Source of the DNA: an uncultured Muribaculaceae bacterium
GTDB lineage: Bacteria > Pseudomonadota > Alphaproteobacteria > Rs-D84
Direction: 5' to 3'
Length of the DNA stretch: 32,000 nt
Assembly: GCA_965231035.1 (NCBI GenBank)
Contig: OZ246409.1
Location: 211,101 to 243,100, forward strand
The notes beneath the pieces were generated by a model that saw only the letters and a list, made by a program, of their open reading frames with translations, ran no database searches and had not been told where the DNA came from. Of this stretch, positions 3,006 to 27,745 are shown one piece after another. How positions within the stretch are numbered: position 1 is the first letter of the stretch; every line of letters begins with the position of its first letter. Both the position numbers and the translations under genes were made by a program.

Positions 3006-3476
3006 ATGAAAGTATTTAAATTCTTATTGGCATTGGCTTTGTCATTTATCCCAGGCGCACTTGGAATACTTTGGACACCAACCAGTGGCGGCAGTGCTTG
3101 GTATTCTACATTGGCACACCCTATTCTGACACCACCTTCTTGGTTCTTTGGCGTTATGTGGACAACATTGTATTTGTTGCTGGCGGTTGCTTTTTATTTG
3201 GTAATAAGAACAGCAAAAGCATCTCGAGAAAAATTACTTTCTATTGAATTGTTTGTTACTCATATAATTTTGAACGCATCATGGAGCTATGTATTCTTTG
3301 GTGAACACCTGATAACATTTGGTGCAGTAATGATTATTGCATTGATAATTGTCGCATTTATGATGTCCCAAGAATTTGGTCGTTCACACAGATACGCCAG
3401 AATATTGGTAATTCCATACATAGTTTGGTTGTTCTGTGCATTGTATCTGAACACTGGTATTTATTTCTTGAATTAA
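3006..3476 (+). CDS. tspO: TspO/MBR family tryptophan-rich sensory protein (paralog 1, the most canonical)
   Basis: Five-TM protein of 156 aa with WYSTLAHPILTPPSWFFGVMWTTLY, NASWSYVFFG and IPYIVWLFCALYLN. A good RBS AAAGGAG lies upstream. Confidence 0.85.
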   Translation: MKVFKFLLALALSFIPGALGILWTPTSGGSAWYSTLAHPILTPPSWFFGVMWTTLYLLLAVAFYLVIRTAKASREKLLSIELFVTHIILNASWSYVFFGEHLITFGAVMIIALIIVAFMMSQEFGRSHRYARILVIPYIVWLFCALYLNTGIYFLN

Positions 3477-4347: not shown

Positions 4348-4392
4348 AACTCCTGTGATTTTTGTTAAAATTCAGAGCAGAACACAGGAGTT
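4348..4392 (+). promoter_or_regulatory. 10-bp perfect inverted repeat whose 3' arm contains the Shine-Dalgarno sequence of TspO paralog 2
   Basis: AACTCCTGTG (4348..4357) and CACAGGAGTT (4383..4392) are separated by 25 nt. AGGAG at 4386..4390 sits 6 nt before the ATG at 4397. A TATAAT hexamer lies at 4341..4346. Confidence 0.4.
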
Positions 4393-4396
4393 TAAA

Positions 4397-4870
4397 ATGA
4401 ATCCCGTAAAACTTTTATTTGCATTATTTTTATCATACTTCCCAGGTATTGTTGGATTTTTCTGGTTACCCACCGGTGGAATTGATCCATGGTATTCTGC
4501 TTTGATAAAAAGTCCTTTTACGCCTTCTTTGAATATGGTTTTTTTAATATGTTTTCCAATAATTTATTTTCTTTTGGGCTTTGCATTTTATATGATAATA
4601 AAGCCTAAATATACCAAACGCAGCATAGACACAGCTGTTGCATTGTTCGGCATTAATATGTTTCTACAATCTGTTTGGAATTTTGTCTTTTTTAAACTTC
4701 ATATGGTTATAATATCAGAATTAATTATCTTAGGGTCTATAACCATAGCTTTTTTAATGCAAAGAAAATTTTCGCTTGAAAACAAAAAAGCTGGTTATTT
4801 AATTTTCCCCTATATTTTCTGGCTGATGTTTTCATTTTACTTGGTTGGCAGCGTAATTTTCTTAAATTAA
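4397..4870 (+). CDS. TspO/MBR family protein (divergent paralog 2)
   Basis: Same length and five-TM layout as paralog 1: LSYFPGIVGFFWLPTGGIDPWYSALIKSPFTPS, QSVWNFVFFK, FPYIFWLMFSFYL. The start is set at the Met preceded by AGGAG. The track ORF begins at an upstream GTG. Confidence 0.75.
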   Translation: MNPVKLLFALFLSYFPGIVGFFWLPTGGIDPWYSALIKSPFTPSLNMVFLICFPIIYFLLGFAFYMIIKPKYTKRSIDTAVALFGINMFLQSVWNFVFFKLHMVIISELIILGSITIAFLMQRKFSLENKKAGYLIFPYIFWLMFSFYLVGSVIFLN

Positions 4871-4897: not shown

Positions 4898-5368
4898 ATG
4901 ACAGTAATGAAATTTATATTTTCCATGATTTTGTCTTTTATGCCAGGCTTAGTTAATCTTTTTTGGCTGCCAAGTGGTGTAGGAACCGAATGGTATGCCA
5001 GTTTGGCAAAATTTCCATTTACCCCAGAAATTCATGTATTTAGTTTTTTGTGGGCAGCAGTGCATGTGTTGCTGGGTATAGGGTTGTTTTTGGTTATCAA
5101 GGGCGACGAAGAAACGGACAATATAAACAAAGCCGTTGGTTTATTTTTAACAGATATAGTTGTAAGTGCCAGCTGGCCATTTATACTTTTTAAATATCAA
5201 ATAATACCATTAAGCACAATCAGCGCTGTTGCGCTGCTGTTGATTGCAATTTTTATGCAGAAAACTTTTACCAAAGAAAACAAAATTGCTGGCAATATCG
5301 TACTTATTTATATAATTTGGTTATCGTTTTCTTTGTATTTGAATTTGGGATTATTAATATTAAATTAA
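4898..5368 (+). CDS. TspO/MBR family protein (divergent paralog 3)
   Basis: LSFMPGLVNLFWLPSGVGTEWYASLAKFPFTPE, SASWPFILFK and LIYIIWLSFSLYLN. An RBS AAAGGA lies upstream. Confidence 0.75.
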   Translation: MTVMKFIFSMILSFMPGLVNLFWLPSGVGTEWYASLAKFPFTPEIHVFSFLWAAVHVLLGIGLFLVIKGDEETDNINKAVGLFLTDIVVSASWPFILFKYQIIPLSTISAVALLLIAIFMQKTFTKENKIAGNIVLIYIIWLSFSLYLNLGLLILN

Positions 5369-5370
5369 AA

Positions 5371-5386
5371 ACCGCCAAATGGCGGT
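5371..5386. terminator. Terminator hairpin ACCGCCAAATGGCGGT (member of a recurring hairpin family)
   Basis: Perfect 6-bp stem with A-run and T-run flanks. It sits between the 3' end of the tspO paralog 3 gene and the 3' end of the tRNA-Arg gene, which are convergent. Confidence 0.7.
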
Positions 5387-5400
5387 TTTTAAATTTATTT

Positions 5401-5446
5401 TGGTGCGCCCAACAAGATTCGAACTTGTGACCTGCAGATTAGAAAT
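5401..5446 (-). tRNA. 3' portion of an interrupted tRNA-Arg(UCU): anticodon loop copy, 3' anticodon stem, variable loop, T-arm, acceptor 3' strand, CCA
   Basis: The minus strand reads ATTTCTAA-TCTGC-AGGTC-ACAAG-TTCGAAT-CTTGT-TGGGCGC-A-CCA. The acceptor strand TGGGCGC pairs perfectly with GCGCCCA at 5850..5844. Confidence 0.85.
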
Positions 5447-5553
5447 TTATGGGCACAAACTATAAATCACCTTGATTTCTAACGGTTATACGACTTACAA
5501 TTTTTTGTGGCTAACCTATGGATAACTTTTACCATAAAAACTCTGATTTTACT

Positions 5554-5630
5554 TGGTGTGGTCGGTGGGAATCGAACCCACACTCTATGGATTAGAAATC
5601 CATTGCATTATCCAGTTATGCTACGACCAC
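5554..5630 (-). tRNA. tRNA-Arg(UCU), intact, nested inside the interrupted tRNA-Arg gene
   Basis: Manual cloverleaf: GTGGTCG-TA-GCAT-AACTGGATA-ATGC-A-ATGGA-TTTCTAA-TCCAT-AGAGT-GTGGG-TTCGATT-CCCAC-CGACCAC-A-CCA. All stems are Watson-Crick and the total is 77 nt with an encoded CCA. Confidence 0.9.
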
Positions 5631-5646
5631 TTAGCGAACTTGACGG

Positions 5647-5675
5647 ATTTTACACTATATTTTTTCAAATTTCAA
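5647..5675 (-). promoter_or_regulatory. Sigma70-type promoter for the nested tRNA-Arg
   Basis: The minus strand reads TTGAAA-N17-TAAAAT. The -10 ends 16 nt before the tRNA 5' end. Confidence 0.6.
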
Positions 5676-5811
5676 TTTGTTTTATTCAGTTTTTGTTTCT
5701 CTAATAATTAAATCATTAAATTCTTCTGATTTAAACTTATCTTGAGCCAAACAATGTATTTTGATAAGCGACGCCCATTCCGTTGAAATTTTTCCGATCT
5801 CTTGCATAATT

Positions 5812-5850
5812 TTAGAAATCTGATGCTCTATCCAGCTGAGCTATGGGCGC
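5812..5850 (-). tRNA. 5' portion of the interrupted tRNA-Arg(UCU): acceptor 5' strand, D-arm, 5' anticodon stem, anticodon loop copy
   Basis: The minus strand reads GCGCCCA-TA-GCTC-AGCTGGATA-GAGC-A-TCAGA-TTTCTAA. Joined to 5438..5401 it gives a 77-nt cloverleaf with a single U-C mismatch at the top of the anticodon stem. Confidence 0.85.
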
Positions 5851-5859
5851 ATTGCGAGC

Positions 5860-5888
5860 ATTTTATACTATAAAAGTCCAAATTTCAA
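5860..5888 (-). promoter_or_regulatory. Sigma70-type promoter for the interrupted tRNA-Arg
   Basis: The minus strand reads TTGAAA-TTTGGACTTTTATAGTA-TAAAAT, ending 9 nt before the tRNA 5' end. It is very similar to the promoter at 5647..5675. Confidence 0.6.
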
Positions 5889-6016
5889 GCCCAGGTTATA
5901 AAAAAACTCCTGAATCCAAAGTGCCCCATCAGAAACACCCCTGCAAAAATTATTCACCATAGGCAGTAAATATGATGAATTTAAAGAACAAGAAAAAGTA
6001 TTCTATGGAGTATAAA

Positions 6017-22753: not shown

Positions 22754-25700
22754 TCAGAATCTGTATGCACCGTACAATTTAACCTTGTGAATCTGTAAAT
22801 CAGCATTGTACTGATAACGATAATCAACACCAAACTGCCATCCGGATGCAGCCAAACATTCAATTCCACCGCCTGCATTTGCCCACAAAGGATCAATTTC
22901 AGTTTTATAATCTGTCATTTCCTTGGCAACTGCAAACTTAAACTGTGATTCAGGGATACCCAACAAATCATATTCAACACCAAATGACAAATTAGGACGA
23001 ATCTGGAACCACGGTGATGTATAAATTCTTTTCTGGGCAATCAAAGAATATCCTGGAGTCAAGCTGGCATAACCATCTGACTGCAATCTCATATAATTAT
23101 TTTCTTTGATTTTTTCATCAATTGTGTACCCAAAGTTATATCCAGCACGAACATAAGCATTTCCGACAATGTATTGATTCAGCCAGTCGTGCATCAAACC
23201 CCATTCTGATGTCAGACTTAAAGATGTTCCACTTCCCTGTATTGAGTCTAAATAATTTTGATCACGTGATATATCTAACATATAGGCATCCAAGAATGCA
23301 TTACCATAAAAACGTGTCTTTTCATTCATTGTCCCCATCAAATATCCACCAAATCCAAAGTTAGTGTTTGTAACCTGGGTCTTGGAACTGACCGGAACAG
23401 ATGCTCCATTTTTATAACCCAAATCAATATTATCTACATTGTCGTTTGTTGTATGTGACATACGTCCAGACAGTCCAACAATCAAAGTATTTGATGCCTG
23501 CCAATCAAAACCACCACTGATCGAGAAACGATTACCCTTTGCCCTATTCTCGGTTCCCAATTGTTGTGTCATCATTCCAAAATCTGTATCAACCCAAGAA
23601 TTTCTTATCTTGCGATTTCTGTTCCAAACAAATTCATCAAACATATGATCTTCGAAATCACGAGCAAATGTGTGTTCGTTCAAACTGATAGTTCCTGTAA
23701 TTTGATTCATTTCACGTGGTTGCATCAATCTGCTGAATTGTGCCAAACGATAACCATCATGATCCAATTGGTATTGTTCCATCAAATTATAAAGTTCATT
23801 TCCAAAATCTTCCAAATATGTGCCATCAAACGCAACAGGTATTGTTTCAATTGGATTGCGACCTGTGAATCCAAGATCTGCAAATCGTCCTGCGATTAAG
23901 TTATCCAAAGCACCTGCAGCAGAATATTCACCATCGGTATGATAATTTTCATTACCAACAATTGGTTGGATTTTGAATACTTCTACTGGACCACCGAAAC
24001 GTGGATCAAACACTACATAAATACTGTCCGCTGTTCCATCATCGTTTGTGTCACGCAATGAAAGATATATTGGTGTATCATTTGTATCTGTGCTGCCATT
24101 GCCCAAAGCATCTAAATAGTTATAACAAATGCTGCCATCTGAATTACAGAATTTTACGAACAAGTTTCTGGTCTTTAATCCCAATTCTTCGATACCATCA
24201 TCTGCATGCAATAACCATATTGCAGATCCAGGGTTAACTATATCAAATATATCAACACCAAACTGAGATGTTTCCAAAGAACCAACAGCAGCAGAACCCA
24301 AAGTTGTAACATTAGAAATAAATTTACCATTTATATCAATCAAAGGTTCCCCAGATGCACCATTAATAATCTGACCAAAACTGTCATCATTTGTTAAGCT
24401 GATACCGGACCAATAATTAACAGGTGCGCCGACTCTTGGTAAAACAGCCGCGTGCAACATACTGGTGTCATCAAATAAATAATCACCACCAACAGTCATT
24501 CTGGATAAACCTGTGAATCTGACATTGCTGCCGATATTTCCATCAACATTTGCGGTCAACCAATTTGGACCAGTTGCAACTATTTGTAAATCTTGAACAT
24601 CAATATCACCACCAACATCCAAGTCACTGGTATTCAAAACTATTGTTCCTGATTCTTGATAAATTTTTGATGCAGCAATACCATCAGCATTTATAACCAA
24701 ATCTGTGGTTGCGATATTTATATCACCATTTGAAACTGTGCCAGAAGAATTCTGTAACAAACCACCAAACAAATTAACCTGACCCGTTACATCCAATTGG
24801 TTTGCATAAATATAAGCTGAACCACCCGTTGTTGCAAAGCTGTCAAAATAAACAACGTCATCTGTATTAATTGTCAATGACCCAGAGTTTGTAGCATTTC
24901 CTAATTCAATATCTGTTGAATCCAAAGACAATGTTCCAGCACTGTTCATTCCACCAAGAACAATACTATTTGCAGATATTGTAACGTCAGCAGTGCTGCC
25001 AGTTACCAAATCACCACCCACGGTTAGATTTGCCAAACCATAATTTCCTGTATAACGAACAGCATTAAAATCACCACCAACATTCAAATCTGTTGTTTTG
25101 AAGTTTGTATTATCTTGTGTCAGGTTCAACATTCCAGAAGTTGCACCTTGGTACAAATCACCAGTAACATCGGTATTACCAGAAACATAAATACTGTTTG
25201 AATTCAGATTTGCATAACCACCAGTTACCGACAACAATGCAGCATCGATTGAATTTCCTGTTATATCCAGACTGTTTGCAGTCGAAGATATATTATTTAA
25301 TGTAATTGAATTACCAGCAACAAAAGTTACATGACCACTGTTTGTTAAATCATTTAAGTCAATATCTGTATCACTATTAACTGAAAAAGAACCAGTATTT
25401 ATCAAATCAATTACTGTGAAATATGATGATGCAATATTCATAGTACCAGAATTTGTGATATTGTTTAAAAATGCTAATTCGTTTGCTGCATCCATATCCA
25501 GTTCACCAGAAATATTAACATCACCGGAAACATTTATTTGATCCGCTGCGTTCATTGTTAATTTGTTTCCAGTTGAAATTGACATACCATTTGAAACAGC
25601 AATATCTGCACCAACACCAGTTGTTTCCAATGTTAAATCATGTGTCGTTCTGATTACAAATCCAGTTGATGGATCAGTACCATCAAACCAAACACCATTA

Positions 25701-27745
25701 GAAAGGTCAATAGCATTATCCGATGAATCTGTTGCCAATATATTTGATCCACGTGCAATAAATTTTCCGTCTCCGGATAAAGTGGCTGCAGTGACATTAG
25801 ATGTATTCAAATCAACCAAACCGCCAGTTGTAGAAGTTATGGATCTTGTAACATTTAAATTCAAAGTTGAACCATTACCAAAAACTAAAACACCTTTGTT
25901 CGAAGCGGCAACAACACCACCAATATCAATTTCATTCGCATCCAAAGTAAGCATTCTGGTAACATCACTCAAAACCGCCATTACATTGCCACCAACAGTT
26001 ATATTTCCGCCATCTGAATGTAATGTCAGACCCAGAACACCATCAGCCATTGCAGAAACATTTCCAGCTGGTGCAGCAGCTGAAGTAGCACCTAAACTTC
26101 CAGAAATTGATAAAACACCGCCAATATTAACACTGGTTGTATTCGGAGCAAAAATCAGAGAGCCAGCGGTTACAGAAATATCATTATCAATAAACATTGG
26201 TCCTGATACTGAATTCAAAGCCACAAATCCGCCCTGGGCAGCAACACCACCAATTCCAAGAGAATTTGTAGCGTTTATAAATGTTGTTCCAGCAATATTA
26301 ACCAGATTTCCACCAATATCAACGTCACGAATATCTATCGAAATTGCGCCATTTTGATTTGTCAAATTTGATGCAATATTCAATATGCCGTTCGCAGTCG
26401 GTGAAGATATATCCAAGTTTCCATTATTTGTTATTGAATCTAAATTATTATTAACACCGTTTATAAGTATTGATCCATCATTTGTAATCGCACCTGCAAT
26501 ATTAATAGCGCCATCGGAATACAAATTAGAGGTAGAAACAGAACTGTTATTCAAAACACCTGTCAAATAAATTCCACCAAAGGAATCTGTTGCCGTTATA
26601 TTTAATGTATTACCTTCGTTTTGAACCAAAGCAGCATGCACAGATTCACCAATCAAATCCATATTTGCTGATGTATTTCCCCCAGAACCATTTCTTATAT
26701 TTCCAAAAGAAACTGAACCATTATTTACAGTTATATTAAATGAATTCATATTATTAGAAATAAGTTGAGTCCAGCCTGTTCCAAATGTCAAAGTTCCTGT
26801 ATTTAAACTGAAAGTATTTGTTGTTCCCATAGTACTGGTATCGAAACCATATTCAAAATGTGTTACACCTGAAACACTTGCATCAAAATTACCTGTGTTT
26901 ACAAACGAAGCATTTGAAATATCGCCACCGCTTACGTTCAAACTGGCAACACTCAAAGATAAAGTTCCCAAAGAACTATCATTCTTCATTGTTCCCGCAA
27001 CAGATACATTACCAGCATTTACATCCAGTAAAGTGCCTGAATTCTCAAGATTTCCAGTTGATGTTAAATTACCAGATAAATTTATATTTGTTGTCCCAGC
27101 ATTATTTTGAACATCACCAGCATTTAAAGAAGACGCTGTTACATTCGCTGTTCCAGTACTGTCATTTGCAAAGTCACCCATCGTAATTGAACCAACAGAT
27201 GTTAAATTAATATTTCCACTGCTGTTGGTGACAGAACCCGCAGAAACAGTCTGGGCAGAAACAATTAAATCACCATAATTAAAAATCGTACCAGTTGTGT
27301 GAAAATTATTTATATTTTCTATGGTTGTTATTCCAGAATTTGAAATACTGCCAAAGCTGGAATTAATTGTTCCACTGGATGTTTTAATTTCAAAAATTTT
27401 TCCAGAACTTATATCCAAAGCACCACCAACAGTTATATCACTGCTGGAAATAATAGAAAATGGAGAATCAATTGTAGTTTCTGCATAAAATTGATTTGTT
27501 ACCGAACCTGGATCGTTCTTGTTTATATACATATTTCCAGAAATGCTGACACCACCAGCACCGACAATAATACCTTTGCCAGATTTAACTATTATCGATC
27601 CTATGGATGCATCTAAACCAGAAACACTTTCGGTGTTTCCAGTACCAGGATCAATAGTTTGTACAGCCATTGCCGTTGCCGGAGCAAGGCATAATATAAA
27701 AGATAGTAGCTTTTTTATCATATTTATGTTTATTTTAGATGACAC
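22754..27745 (-). CDS. Autotransporter (type Va) with a large Gly/Asn/Ser/Thr-rich beta-helical passenger and a C-terminal beta-barrel
   Basis: Signal peptide ...LLSFILCLAPATAMAVQ. About 1300 aa of degenerate G/N/S/T/I-rich repeats typical of passenger beta-helices. The C-terminal roughly 280 aa has alternating aromatic and hydrophilic residues and ends ...KVKLYGAYRF (terminal Phe). Confidence 0.85.
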   Translation of the reverse strand: MSSKININMIKKLLSFILCLAPATAMAVQTIDPGTGNTESVSGLDASIGSIIVKSGKGIIVGAGGVSISGNMYINKNDPGSVTNQFYAETTIDSPFSIISSSDITVGGALDISSGKIFEIKTSSGTINSSFGSISNSGITTIENINNFHTTGTIFNYGDLIVSAQTVSAGSVTNSSGNINLTSVGSITMGDFANDSTGTANVTASSLNAGDVQNNAGTTNINLSGNLTSTGNLENSGTLLDVNAGNVSVAGTMKNDSSLGTLSLSVASLNVSGGDISNASFVNTGNFDASVSGVTHFEYGFDTSTMGTTNTFSLNTGTLTFGTGWTQLISNNMNSFNITVNNGSVSFGNIRNGSGGNTSANMDLIGESVHAALVQNEGNTLNITATDSFGGIYLTGVLNNSSVSTSNLYSDGAINIAGAITNDGSILINGVNNNLDSITNNGNLDISSPTANGILNIASNLTNQNGAISIDIRDVDIGGNLVNIAGTTFINATNSLGIGGVAAQGGFVALNSVSGPMFIDNDISVTAGSLIFAPNTTSVNIGGVLSISGSLGATSAAAPAGNVSAMADGVLGLTLHSDGGNITVGGNVMAVLSDVTRMLTLDANEIDIGGVVAASNKGVLVFGNGSTLNLNVTRSITSTTGGLVDLNTSNVTAATLSGDGKFIARGSNILATDSSDNAIDLSNGVWFDGTDPSTGFVIRTTHDLTLETTGVGADIAVSNGMSISTGNKLTMNAADQINVSGDVNISGELDMDAANELAFLNNITNSGTMNIASSYFTVIDLINTGSFSVNSDTDIDLNDLTNSGHVTFVAGNSITLNNISSTANSLDITGNSIDAALLSVTGGYANLNSNSIYVSGNTDVTGDLYQGATSGMLNLTQDNTNFKTTDLNVGGDFNAVRYTGNYGLANLTVGGDLVTGSTADVTISANSIVLGGMNSAGTLSLDSTDIELGNATNSGSLTINTDDVVYFDSFATTGGSAYIYANQLDVTGQVNLFGGLLQNSSGTVSNGDINIATTDLVINADGIAASKIYQESGTIVLNTSDLDVGGDIDVQDLQIVATGPNWLTANVDGNIGSNVRFTGLSRMTVGGDYLFDDTSMLHAAVLPRVGAPVNYWSGISLTNDDSFGQIINGASGEPLIDINGKFISNVTTLGSAAVGSLETSQFGVDIFDIVNPGSAIWLLHADDGIEELGLKTRNLFVKFCNSDGSICYNYLDALGNGSTDTNDTPIYLSLRDTNDDGTADSIYVVFDPRFGGPVEVFKIQPIVGNENYHTDGEYSAAGALDNLIAGRFADLGFTGRNPIETIPVAFDGTYLEDFGNELYNLMEQYQLDHDGYRLAQFSRLMQPREMNQITGTISLNEHTFARDFEDHMFDEFVWNRNRKIRNSWVDTDFGMMTQQLGTENRAKGNRFSISGGFDWQASNTLIVGLSGRMSHTTNDNVDNIDLGYKNGASVPVSSKTQVTNTNFGFGGYLMGTMNEKTRFYGNAFLDAYMLDISRDQNYLDSIQGSGTSLSLTSEWGLMHDWLNQYIVGNAYVRAGYNFGYTIDEKIKENNYMRLQSDGYASLTPGYSLIAQKRIYTSPWFQIRPNLSFGVEYDLLGIPESQFKFAVAKEMTDYKTEIDPLWANAGGGIECLAASGWQFGVDYRYQYNADLQIHKVKLYGAYRF

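Follow-up and report, generated by a model that had tools for sequence, protein, structure and literature searches.

[quoted passage not shown] In these phages, the integrases bind arm-type sites through a domain at the N-terminus, and such sites lie on either side of the core (PMC10865867). Sinorhizobium meliloti prophages like Mesorhizobium phage Lo5R7ANS integrate within tRNA-Leu(UAG), where mid-gene integration inactivates the tRNA and an equivalent tRNA is carried by the prophage (PMC11476347). The Lactobacillus johnsonii prophage Lj965, as it is cited in PMC10865867, combines the same mid-tRNA integration with a replacement tRNA. Canonical tRNA islands and prophages of the anticodon-loop sublocation use a P4-type tyrosine integrase with crossover in the loop (Williams 2002; Islander, PMC4383910). 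The attP of such canonical elements carries the 3' part of the tRNA (a common core of 30-45 bp), so that integration restores the gene and leaves behind no more than a displaced 3' fragment.

CIMEs, such as those of Streptococcus thermophilus, are ICE-derived elements that are flanked by attL and attR and have no recombination or transfer genes; they are thought to be products of internal deletion and to be open to mobilization in trans. Known CIMEs are kilobases long, carry cargo and sit at sites that stay functional. To our knowledge, they need carry no replacement for a destroyed essential gene. Anticodon loops may also be interrupted by group I introns, as in the tRNA-Leu(UAA) gene of cyanobacteria, the tRNA-Arg(CCU) gene of Agrobacterium and a tRNA-Ile gene of Azoarcus.

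The locus described here was identified in 32,000 nucleotides of DNA from an uncultured alphaproteobacterium (hereafter, the window). The original prediction was that a 77-nt tRNA-Arg(UCU) gene on the minus strand is split in its anticodon loop. The 5' half of this outer tRNA (5812..5850; minus-strand letters 5850..5812, GCGCCCATAGCTCAGCTGGATAGAGCATCAGATTTCTAA) comprises the acceptor 5' strand, D-arm, 5' anticodon stem and anticodon loop, and ends with the left copy of an 8-bp core repeat. The 3' half (5401..5438) comprises the 3' anticodon stem, variable loop, T-arm, acceptor 3' strand and CCA; together with the right copy of the core, it corresponds to minus-strand letters 5446..5401, ATTTCTAATCTGCAGGTCACAAGTTCGAATCTTGTTGGGCGCACCA. 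When the halves are fused via a single copy of the 8-mer, the resulting 77 nt are called as tRNA-Arg(tct) by ARAGORN, and pairing is complete in the acceptor stem (7/7), D-stem (4/4) and T-stem (5/5), in agreement with the prediction. The description of this tRNA as textbook holds for these stems but not for the anticodon stem, in which there is a U27/C43 mismatch. The same mismatch is found in a Candidatus Enterousia tRNA, the closest intact one among the matches listed (71/77 identical to the outer tRNA), and it is thus native to the outer tRNA. Each half alone is sub-threshold with the Rfam tRNA model (26.7 and 22.6 bits).

In the 5' half, 38/39 positions agree with the corresponding section of the intact Enterousia tRNA. 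Pair 7:66, which spans both halves, is A:T vs T:A relative to this tRNA, a compensatory change. With Enterousia as a reference, this covariation confirms on sequence grounds that the two halves were formerly one gene, and it speaks against their being unrelated fragments, a possibility raised at the outset. Given the 71/77 identity and the compensatory changes, the outer tRNA is, judging from its sequence, of native alphaproteobacterial type. Promoter P1 of the split gene (5860..5888, minus strand) consists of TTGAAA, a 17 nt spacer and TAAAAT (10/12 consensus match), and an intrinsic terminator with a 12-pair stem and a T-run lies 3' of the outer tRNA (5365..5392, minus strand). Both outer halves, P1 and the terminator are undecayed.

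The halves are separated by 373 bp, made up of 365 unique bp and the 8-bp anticodon-loop repeat ATTTCTAA found at both sides, as predicted. The left core (5812..5819, minus strand) is an attL-type junction consisting of nt 31 and the 7-nt anticodon loop; the right core (5439..5446, minus strand) is an attR-type junction that aligns with the TTTCTAA junctions of two related loci, L135 and L133. Both junctions fall inside nt 31-38 of the outer tRNA-Arg(UCU), and neither rebuilds a tRNA: the 5' half runs into non-tRNA letters, and arm sequence precedes the 3' half. The third copy of ATTTCTAA (5592-5599, minus strand), in an inner tRNA, and an inverted fourth copy (5475..5482, plus strand) are present where they had been reported; the fourth copy has no conserved counterpart at the aligned position of L135 or L133. 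The 8-mer occurs four times within 450 bp, against an expectation of approximately 0.05 at the rate in the whole window (3.5 per 32 kb). At the insert ends, the inverted match is 5 nt at most (TTATG/CATAA), with no longer terminal inverted repeats.

The 365 bp contain a tRNA, a promoter and an orphan 41-codon open reading frame (ORF), with no recombination or transfer genes. The left arm contains this ORF (5682..5807, minus strand), which gene callers report in L001 and L003, contrary to the statement that the insert has no ORF. The ORF is probably not a real gene: its sole match among 5.8 billion proteins is itself. As an orphan, it was of no use as a handle on full-length relatives. No integrase is encoded in the insert, as originally noted, and no tyrosine recombinase in the 32-kb window; no phage genes are present in the insert.

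The inner gene, tRNA-B (5554..5630, minus strand), is a complete tRNA-Arg(UCU) according to ARAGORN and Rfam (74 bits), and it is clearly different from the outer tRNA, as had been proposed. Its promoter, P2 (5647..5675, minus strand), consists of TTGAAA, 17 nt and TAAAAT; as a small correction to the claim of a strong promoter in the insert, it matches the consensus at 10/12 positions. P2 is 79% identical to P1 over 29 nt (repeat family D1) and 18/19 identical to the promoter ahead of a split tRNA in L108. The D-arm of tRNA-B, GCATAACTGGATAATGC, is like those of the element tRNAs in L131 and L135, and overall tRNA-B is closer to these element tRNAs (59/77 identical) than to the outer tRNA (48/78). 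It lies 107 and 181 bp from the two cores. An exact 33-mer scan of JGI metagenome contigs revealed no further copies, and none turned up in the viral collections. AGA accounts for 98/286 (34%) of the Arg codons in the window's genes; tRNA-B is presumably a functional replacement for the split outer tRNA, and we infer that it is the only functional tRNA-Arg(UCU) of this genome.

A genome scan by degenerate pattern produced at least 120 loci (the pattern is very common), with L108 and intact relatives among the matches listed. A tyrosine integrase is present in relatives L108, L131, L133, L135, L141 and L142. The relatives are not recognisable as phages but are islands whose cargo is of defence type, including restriction and helicase genes, and no annotated phage integrase is more than 30% identical to their integrases. 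An HTH_17 protein adjoins integrases of the L135, L133 or L141 type. The hosts concerned are uncultured low-GC Alphaproteobacteria.

The right arm, 107 bp between tRNA-B and the right core (5447..5553, minus strand), is homologous to an arm of approximately 125 bp in L135 and L133. These two loci were retrieved through integrase homology, not through the arm motif described below. In the alignment of the three loci (alignment A1), tRNA-B, the arm, the core and the 3' half all align with L135 and L133, and a 30-nt motif, ATGGTAAAAGTTAKCCATAGGTTAGCCACA, has equal spacing from the tRNA 3' end in each. In the window, this arm motif (ATGGTAAAAGTTATCCATAGGTTAGCCACA; 5506..5535, minus strand) contains a direct repeat, GTTATCCA (5526..5519) and GTTAGCCA (5515..5508), with copies 11 bp apart; the GTTAKCCA pair represents putative arm-type integrase binding sites. 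Using blastn-short, the motif matches L135 (E = 3e-10), L136 (5e-9), L137 (5e-6) and L133 (2e-5), and an exact 16-mer from it is found only in L133 and L135 among 135 loci. In L135 and L133, P4-type integrase genes are found at a distance of 0.8-2.8 kb from modules with this same arm; both loci look composite. In L137, a tRNA-Arg(CCG) is followed by the same arm, the core CTCCGAA and then the 3' half of tRNA-Arg(CCG), which is the same design on a second tRNA.

On the left side, a core-proximal family motif, TTATGCAAGAGAT (5797..5809, minus strand), lies 2 nt from the left core. It matches TTATGCATAGAGAT of L138 at 13/14 positions with a 1-nt gap, and looser versions occur in L131, L108 and L141. 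The motif score was reached by 0/3000 shuffles in the first 40 nt and by 30/3000 over the whole arm. In the relatives the motif is 13-14 nt from the core; that of the window is approximately 12 bp nearer, and impaired excision would be expected if a core-type site has been lost in this way. Beyond this 13-nt motif and the promoter, the left arm aligns with no relative. Its layout recurs in L108, L141 and L142: host promoter, 5' half, YTTCTAA, approximately 200 bp with a TTGAAA..TAAAAT promoter, and a whole tRNA-Arg(UCU). In each of these loci the layout adjoins a P4-type integrase (Arm-DNA-bind_3 + Phage_integrase). The 5' half, core and non-tRNA junction are also found in L131 and L133, such that a YTTCTAA junction adjoins integrases in L108, L131, L133, L141 and L142.

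The organization of these relatives is variable. The tRNA halves are convergent in L133, the position of the element tRNA with respect to the integrase differs among L131, L141 and L135, and several integrase loci have a composite or rearranged appearance. In no single locus were both junctions of a full-length element recovered. The left boundary of the L135 element, sought as a test for an intermediate-sized relative lacking an integrase, was not found; the exact L108 integrase is absent from the protein collection, and the far junction of the L108 element was not recovered.

No second copy of the insert was detected in the window, in 142 loci, in viral contigs or in metagenome contigs. All contigs seen carry the occupied site, and an empty site at the syntenic locus was not found because synteny is lost at approximately 70% protein identity: homologues of the flanking phosphatase at this level of identity lie in unrelated contexts, and in a tblastx comparison of the window with the closest tRNA-bearing loci, synteny is no more than partial, with TspO and tRNA-Pro shared by L076 and Dus by L051. 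A comparison of the region and insert with 50,697 phage records (megablast and sensitive blastn) produced only generic tRNA and AT-rich matches, and three scans of viral contigs produced no match. An origin from a temperate phage was rejected, based on the lack of phage genes in the insert and of any real match in phage records or viral contigs.

Before a mechanism is proposed, other explanations for this arrangement should be weighed. A chimeric join at repeated tRNA sequence is conceivable in principle, as tRNA genes are repeat-like and the data are metagenome assemblies, but its probability is close to nil: the 648-bp intergenic region is 100% identical in ENA ERZ27257449, ENA ERZ27257423 and Logan SRR4236661, three independent assemblies from different pipelines (contigs of 129 kb, 373 kb and 7.6 kb) in which the flanks are identical too, and the two tRNAs have only the loop in common. 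Decay of a tandem array, in which independent deletions in two or three tRNA-Arg(UCU) genes left a 5' fragment, an intact gene and a 3' fragment, is improbable, although several observations fit it. Immediately ahead of the right 8-mer, GTGCCCATA is similar to nt 1-9 of the outer tRNA (family D6); in Rfam, 5404-5456 align as a complete tRNA containing a deletion (26.7 bits); L031 has a truncated tRNA-Arg pseudogene directly ahead of an intact gene; and P1 and P2 are similar to one another. However, the two fragments have exactly the 8-bp loop in common and complete each other perfectly, pair 7:66 covaries across the halves, and both the right arm and the left motif are homologous to integrase-linked sequences. 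Moreover, GTGCCCATA aligns to the L135/L133 arm with an 11-nt gap and is therefore arm sequence, not a tRNA start, which rules it out as the beginning of a third, internally deleted tRNA.

It had also been suggested that the insert is a MITE-like non-autonomous transposon that entered the anticodon loop with an 8-bp target-site duplication. The small size (365 bp), lack of a transposase and exact 8-bp flanking direct repeats agree with this suggestion, which is nevertheless very improbable: the terminal inverted match does not exceed 5 nt, other copies are absent from all collections searched, and the supposed duplication is the YTTCTAA core at the junctions of integrase-bearing relatives (CTCCGAA in the tRNA-Arg(CCG) variant). 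The remaining proposal was a non-canonical intervening sequence; more broadly, the insert might be removed at the RNA level, as a self-splicing or non-canonical intron or by trans-joining of a split tRNA, such that the outer tRNA would still be made. Group I introns do occur in bacterial tRNA anticodon loops, the undecayed state of both halves, P1 and the terminator is compatible with continued use, and the 450-nt transcript has a possible fold in which all three outer stems (acceptor, D and T) are paired (z = -2.2). This z-score is accounted for by the tRNA stems, however, and thus the fold provides no evidence for splicing. The intron checks recommended with the original prediction were also negative: no group I or group II model matches at the Rfam gathering threshold in the window or at E <= 10 in 5300-5950, and ARAGORN does not report the outer gene when introns of up to 600 nt are permitted; the tRNAs were all that these searches returned. 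In addition, bacteria are not known to have the tRNA splicing endonuclease, and the insert has its own promoter, a whole tRNA and an arm homologous to the DNA recombination arms that adjoin integrases. Removal from the RNA is thus most improbable.

The insert is probably a miniature, non-autonomous derivative of a tyrosine-integrase island with tRNA-dependent integration in uncultured Alphaproteobacteria. Members of this island family would recombine via a common core of 7-8 bp, the anticodon loop of tRNA-Arg(UCU). As the attachment site lacks the 3' part of the tRNA, the host gene would be left in two pieces, a 5' half with the promoter and a 3' half with the terminator; the element would compensate with its own promoter-driven tRNA-Arg(UCU), located 100-200 bp from the core. 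The insertion was presumably made by an integrase, and the rest of the element was presumably removed by deletion. Integrase, excisionase and cargo would have been lost from the window, leaving the tRNA module and both attachment arms, such that tRNA-B would be the working AGA decoder and the outer halves an undecayed split pseudogene. Excision of the unit is predicted to produce the empty site ...GAGCATCAGATTTCTAATCTGCAGG... and the circle junction ...GTTTGTGCCCATAAATTTCTAAAATTATGCAAG....

This interpretation corresponds to the first of the readings originally offered, a CIME-like remnant of an element targeting the anticodon loop, for which the comparative evidence argues (integrase-linked arms, layout and core). 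In common with CIMEs, the unit has a core at both ends, an integrase-linked right arm, a family motif on the left and no recombination or transfer genes. The insert may be only a deletion remnant. Alternatively, the 373-bp unit could be a working minimal element, consisting of attachment site and tRNA, that is moved in trans by the integrases of full-length islands present in the same community and held as a tRNA-based addiction cassette, retained because no other working copy is left of the essential tRNA that was destroyed by the insertion; we regard this as unlikely, if clearly less so than the rival explanations above.

It was initially stated that no comparable bacterial case had been described, but there are precedents in the actinobacteriophages (PMC10865867), in Lj965 as cited there and in the S. 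meliloti prophages (PMC11476347). The mechanism itself was thus already published for actinobacteriophages in 2024, and what is new here is the unusually small form. Similar to tRNA-dependent lysogeny, the site in the window is in the anticodon loop, the core is 8 bp, no tRNA is rebuilt and the element carries a tRNA-Arg(UCU) with a promoter; unlike it, the unit has no integrase or phage genes and is only 373 bp long. In further contrast to the actinobacteriophages, the relatives of this unit are defence-cargo islands with no match in phage collections, and its tRNA immediately adjoins the attachment arms. Like the window, the S. meliloti case is alphaproteobacterial, but both it and Lj965 involve whole prophages that have an integrase and other tRNA targets, with no miniature derivative described. 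Canonical islands differ in that they regenerate the target gene, whereas here this happens at neither junction and the sequence after the left core is not tRNA-like. The unit is flanked by attL and attR and lacks recombination genes as CIMEs do, but it is much smaller and carries a replacement tRNA. It resembles group I introns in interrupting an anticodon loop with a few hundred bases, but it has no ribozyme core and instead has an internal promoter, a tRNA, the 8-bp repeat and recombination arms.

Integration-proficient 'attP plus tRNA' vectors have been described by the Hatfull group, and the 373-bp unit is their natural counterpart. Its organization has consequences for annotation: tRNA finders report the inner gene only, so that the host-type tRNA seems absent and the foreign one is taken for native, and island finders that expect a regenerated tRNA and a displaced 3' fragment will miss such elements altogether. 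It is conceivable, if unlikely, that the tRNA-arm-core module is an exchangeable targeting cassette, with versions for Arg-UCU, Arg-CCG and perhaps Gly-CCC, that could retarget islands between tRNA genes. The locus suggests that the strategy of splitting a tRNA gene and bringing a replacement is used by a non-phage island family in uncultured Alphaproteobacteria, and that it can collapse to two attachment arms and one tRNA. Because the foreign tRNA would be irremovable once the body of the element is lost, a core tRNA gene could in this way be replaced horizontally and permanently.

The tRNA-Arg(UCU) gene on the minus strand is split at its anticodon loop into a 5' half (5850..5812, GCGCCCATAGCTCAGCTGGATAGAGCATCAGATTTCTAA) and a 3' half (5446..5401, ATTTCTAATCTGCAGGTCACAAGTTCGAATCTTGTTGGGCGCACCA). 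Joined via a single copy of the 8-bp core, ATTTCTAA, the halves form a 77-nt tRNA-Arg(UCU) that is accepted by ARAGORN, with the perfect acceptor, D and T stems of the original prediction and, additionally, one anticodon-stem mismatch, U27/C43. In the unjoined native sequence, ARAGORN and Rfam call only tRNA-B, the complete tRNA-Arg(UCU) within the insert (5554..5630, minus strand, 74 bits); the outer halves give sub-threshold matches to the Rfam tRNA model (26.7 and 22.6 bits). All matches listed in a genome scan for relatives are host-type tRNA-Arg(UCU), and the closest intact tRNA among them, from Candidatus Enterousia, is identical to the outer tRNA at 71/77 positions and has the same anticodon arm, mismatch included. 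These two tRNAs differ by a compensatory change at pair 7:66 (A:T versus T:A), which bridges both halves and shows that they derive from one gene.

As predicted, the core is present at both junctions, in tRNA-B and in a fourth, inverted position (four copies in the 450-bp locus), although across the whole window it shows no enrichment (6 copies versus 3.5 expected). The inverted copy (5475-5482), separated from the right core by 28 nt, is not conserved at the aligned positions in L135 and L133, two of the loci (L-numbers) fetched from other genomes and metagenomes for comparison; it is either a chance occurrence or a window-specific site. Three assemblies (ENA ERZ27257449, ENA ERZ27257423 and Logan SRR4236661) contain contigs with the same 648-bp intergenic region and flanks at 100% identity, ruling out an assembly artefact.

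The window comes from the chromosome of an uncultured, low-GC alphaproteobacterium. The neighbours of the split tRNA are housekeeping genes: Dus, three clustered TspO/MBR paralogues (3006..3476, 4355..4870 and 4898..5368, with a NAGPA-like gene between the first two), a histidine phosphatase and a SpoU methylase, with Rho, enolase and CarD genes farther away. Two giant ORFs are also present (1630 aa, 7766-12658; 1663 aa, 22754-27745), the former having an N-terminal M48 peptidase as its sole match. No tyrosine recombinase is encoded in the 32-kb window, and the insert has no integrase, as first reported. A large serine recombinase (550 aa; 13155..14807, plus strand) and a DUF2924 gene (12727..13062, minus strand) lie 7 kb from the split tRNA and about 600 bp from tRNA-Pro(UGG) (15425..15501, minus strand). 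This locus is a separate matter: another integrative element, unrelated to the first, or what is left of one, may occupy 12727-15501. In L007, a relative's locus, a large serine recombinase is also found near the phosphatase homologue; in L006 (3628-3948), from a relative of the window's organism, a 79-aa GIY-YIG domain ORF ends 5 bp before tRNA-Pro(UGG).

The 373-bp insert (365 unique bp plus one core copy) is best read as the integration of a member of an island family into the outer tRNA, later reduced to its arms and a tRNA. Two of the readings first proposed, an intron and a MITE-like transposon, are rejected. No match to group I or group II intron models was found in the locus even at E <= 10, and the insert has its own promoter: P2, which drives tRNA-B, matches the consensus at 10/12 positions, in agreement with the strong promoter predicted. 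The ends of the insert share an inverted match of only 5 nt, and no further copies were found in any collection searched. The proposal of a CIME-like remnant is supported by homology of the right side to integrase-linked modules and by recurrence of the left-side layout beside integrases.

L135 and L133, both fetched by integrase homology, have the order promoter-driven element tRNA-Arg(UCU) (with a D-arm, GCATAATGGATAATGC, similar to that of tRNA-B), arm of roughly 125 bp, TTTCTAA and tRNA 3' half. The stretch comprising tRNA-B, the 107-bp right arm, the core and the 3' half can be aligned to both. The right arm contains ATGGTAAAAGTTAKCCATAGGTTAGCCACA, a GTTAKCCA direct repeat spaced 11 bp apart, as expected for arm-type integrase sites; its distance from the tRNA 3' end is equal in all three loci. 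Among 135 loci, the exact 16-mer of this motif occurs only in the window's own copies, L133 and L135. A metagenome scan with the motif found L136 and L137 (blastn-short E values: L135, 3e-10; L136, 5e-9; L137, 5e-6; L133, 2e-5). In L137 (505-773), the same GTTAGCCA-repeat arm follows tRNA-Arg(CCG) and precedes CTCCGAA, a core that is the anticodon loop of tRNA-Arg(CCG), and then a tRNA-Arg(CCG) 3' half. In L136 (1380-1552), the GTTAGCCA-repeat arm follows tRNA-Gly(CCC), with no recognisable core after it. Since one arm is found beside three different tRNAs, the design is modular across tRNA targets, which can apparently exchange the unit of tRNA plus arm. In L135 (12300-12370) and L137 (835-900), the element-tRNA promoter is immediately preceded by a conserved GC-rich stretch of ~60 nt (GGCGGCGGG..TTTTTGACCC..CGGCGCGACCCGTCCCC), which is absent from the window.

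The left-side layout is the same as in L108, L141 and L142. In L108, from another alphaproteobacterial MAG, a homologous promoter precedes a 5' half that ends in TTTCTAATC and continues into foreign DNA; about 200 nt downstream is a complete, different tRNA-Arg(UCU) with its own promoter, followed by a SocA-like gene, a tyrosine integrase of the P4 type with Arm-DNA-bind_3, SAM-like and catalytic domains, and DUF6291 and DUF6362 genes. L141 and L142, whose integrases are 92% identical to that of L108, show this arrangement in compact form: host promoter, 5' half, TTTCTAA, a 204-nt stretch with a TTGAAA..TAAAAT promoter, whole tRNA-Arg(UCU) and terminator lie within about 700 bp, with the integrase gene convergent on the tRNA. 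Integrase homologues at 62-70% identity occur in islands with a conserved HTH_17, DUF6291, HTH_17, integrase module and defence-type cargo (restriction-modification genes, a HamA homologue, a KAP NTPase and an OLD-family nuclease). The L131 and L133 islands have additional junctions of 5' half, core and non-tRNA sequence.

The left arm itself is a weaker link to this family than the right side: its 181 bp, from the left core to tRNA-B, show no overall alignment to relatives. It is still tied to the family by layout, by the likeness of P2 to the L108 promoter (18/19) and by its first bases, TTATGCAAGAGAT, which match the family's core-proximal motif (TTATGCATAGAGAT in L138, TTATTGATAGAGAT in L131). 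The score of this match was reached by 0/3000 shuffles in the first 40 nt and by 30/3000 over the whole arm. Motif and core are separated by 2 nt in the window versus 13-14 nt in relatives, and about 12 bp beside the core may therefore be missing. Although the insert had been described as lacking an ORF, the left arm contains one of 41 codons; it has no homologue and is probably not a gene.

Among the loci fetched, no full-length element with both ends was recovered, and no empty site (an uninterrupted outer tRNA at this locus) was found. Several integrase loci appear nested or rearranged, and L131, L141 and L135 differ in where the element tRNA lies with respect to the integrase. In L133 (13950-15400), the cognate 5' half (15391..15353, minus strand) of one tRNA-Arg(UCU) faces its 3' half (14225..14270, plus strand) 1.1 kb away, with a second, element-type 3' half one arm-length upstream, which suggests nested integrations, inversion, or both. 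In L138 (10001-14833), an OLD-family nuclease gene is flanked by two family integrases at a spacing of 2.4 kb. The first of these integrases converges on an intact tRNA-Arg(UCU) (11605..11529); either integration by some members leaves the gene unsplit, or the tRNA could belong to the element itself. L139 (4250-4314) and L140 (4040-4078) have near-identical element flanks, with an integrase 91% identical to that of L108, and the tRNAs at the flank ends differ in their acceptor 3' strands (TGGGCAC versus AGGGCGC), suggesting that the element-side tRNA was swapped or converted between strains.

In two Verrucomicrobia MAGs (L078, 115-153, plus strand; L048, near 1263, minus strand), a tRNA-Arg(UCU) 5' half stops at the anticodon loop and is followed in both cases by AGCCTAACGA. 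The fetched stretches have no complete tRNA and no intron match; L078 has no integrase within about 8 kb and encodes a NusG paralogue and TPR proteins downstream. A different type of element may have split this loop in these genomes. In L031 (5908-6085, uncultured bacterium), a truncated tRNA-Arg pseudogene (the 5' two-thirds, without the T-arm) precedes an intact tRNA-Arg(UCU) by 60 nt within a Pro-Arg-His tRNA cluster.

The original prediction knew of no described bacterial case, but precedents exist. In tRNA-dependent lysogeny (Guerrero-Bustamante & Hatfull 2024, PMC10865867), the tyrosine integrase has arm-type sites and uses a common core of just 8-10 bp at the anticodon, the host tRNA is not reconstructed, and a phage tRNA of the same isotype is needed for lysogen survival; Lactobacillus prophage Lj965 is cited alongside it in that source. 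In a bioinformatic study, S. meliloti prophages are reported to inactivate tRNA-Leu(UAG) and bring a replacement (PMC11476347). The mechanism is already published. In contrast to tRNA-dependent lysogeny, the window unit is a 373-bp miniature without an integrase, resembling a cis-mobilizable element in form; the members of its family are islands that carry defence-type cargo and are not recognisable as phages (integrases <=30% identical to any annotated phage integrase); and its tRNA is directly beside the attachment arms.

By this mechanism, an island of the family would integrate via a 7-8 bp core at the native tRNA-Arg(UCU), within its anticodon loop, leave the host gene unrebuilt and provide its own tRNA-Arg(UCU); later loss of integrase, excisionase and cargo would leave the arms and the tRNA. 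Of the Arg codons in genes of the window, 34% are AGA, and a tRNA-Arg(UCU) is therefore indispensable; tRNA-B has its own promoter and a normal tRNA score. The outer halves are undecayed, which suggests either that the event is recent or that selection has continued to favour a site that can be excised.
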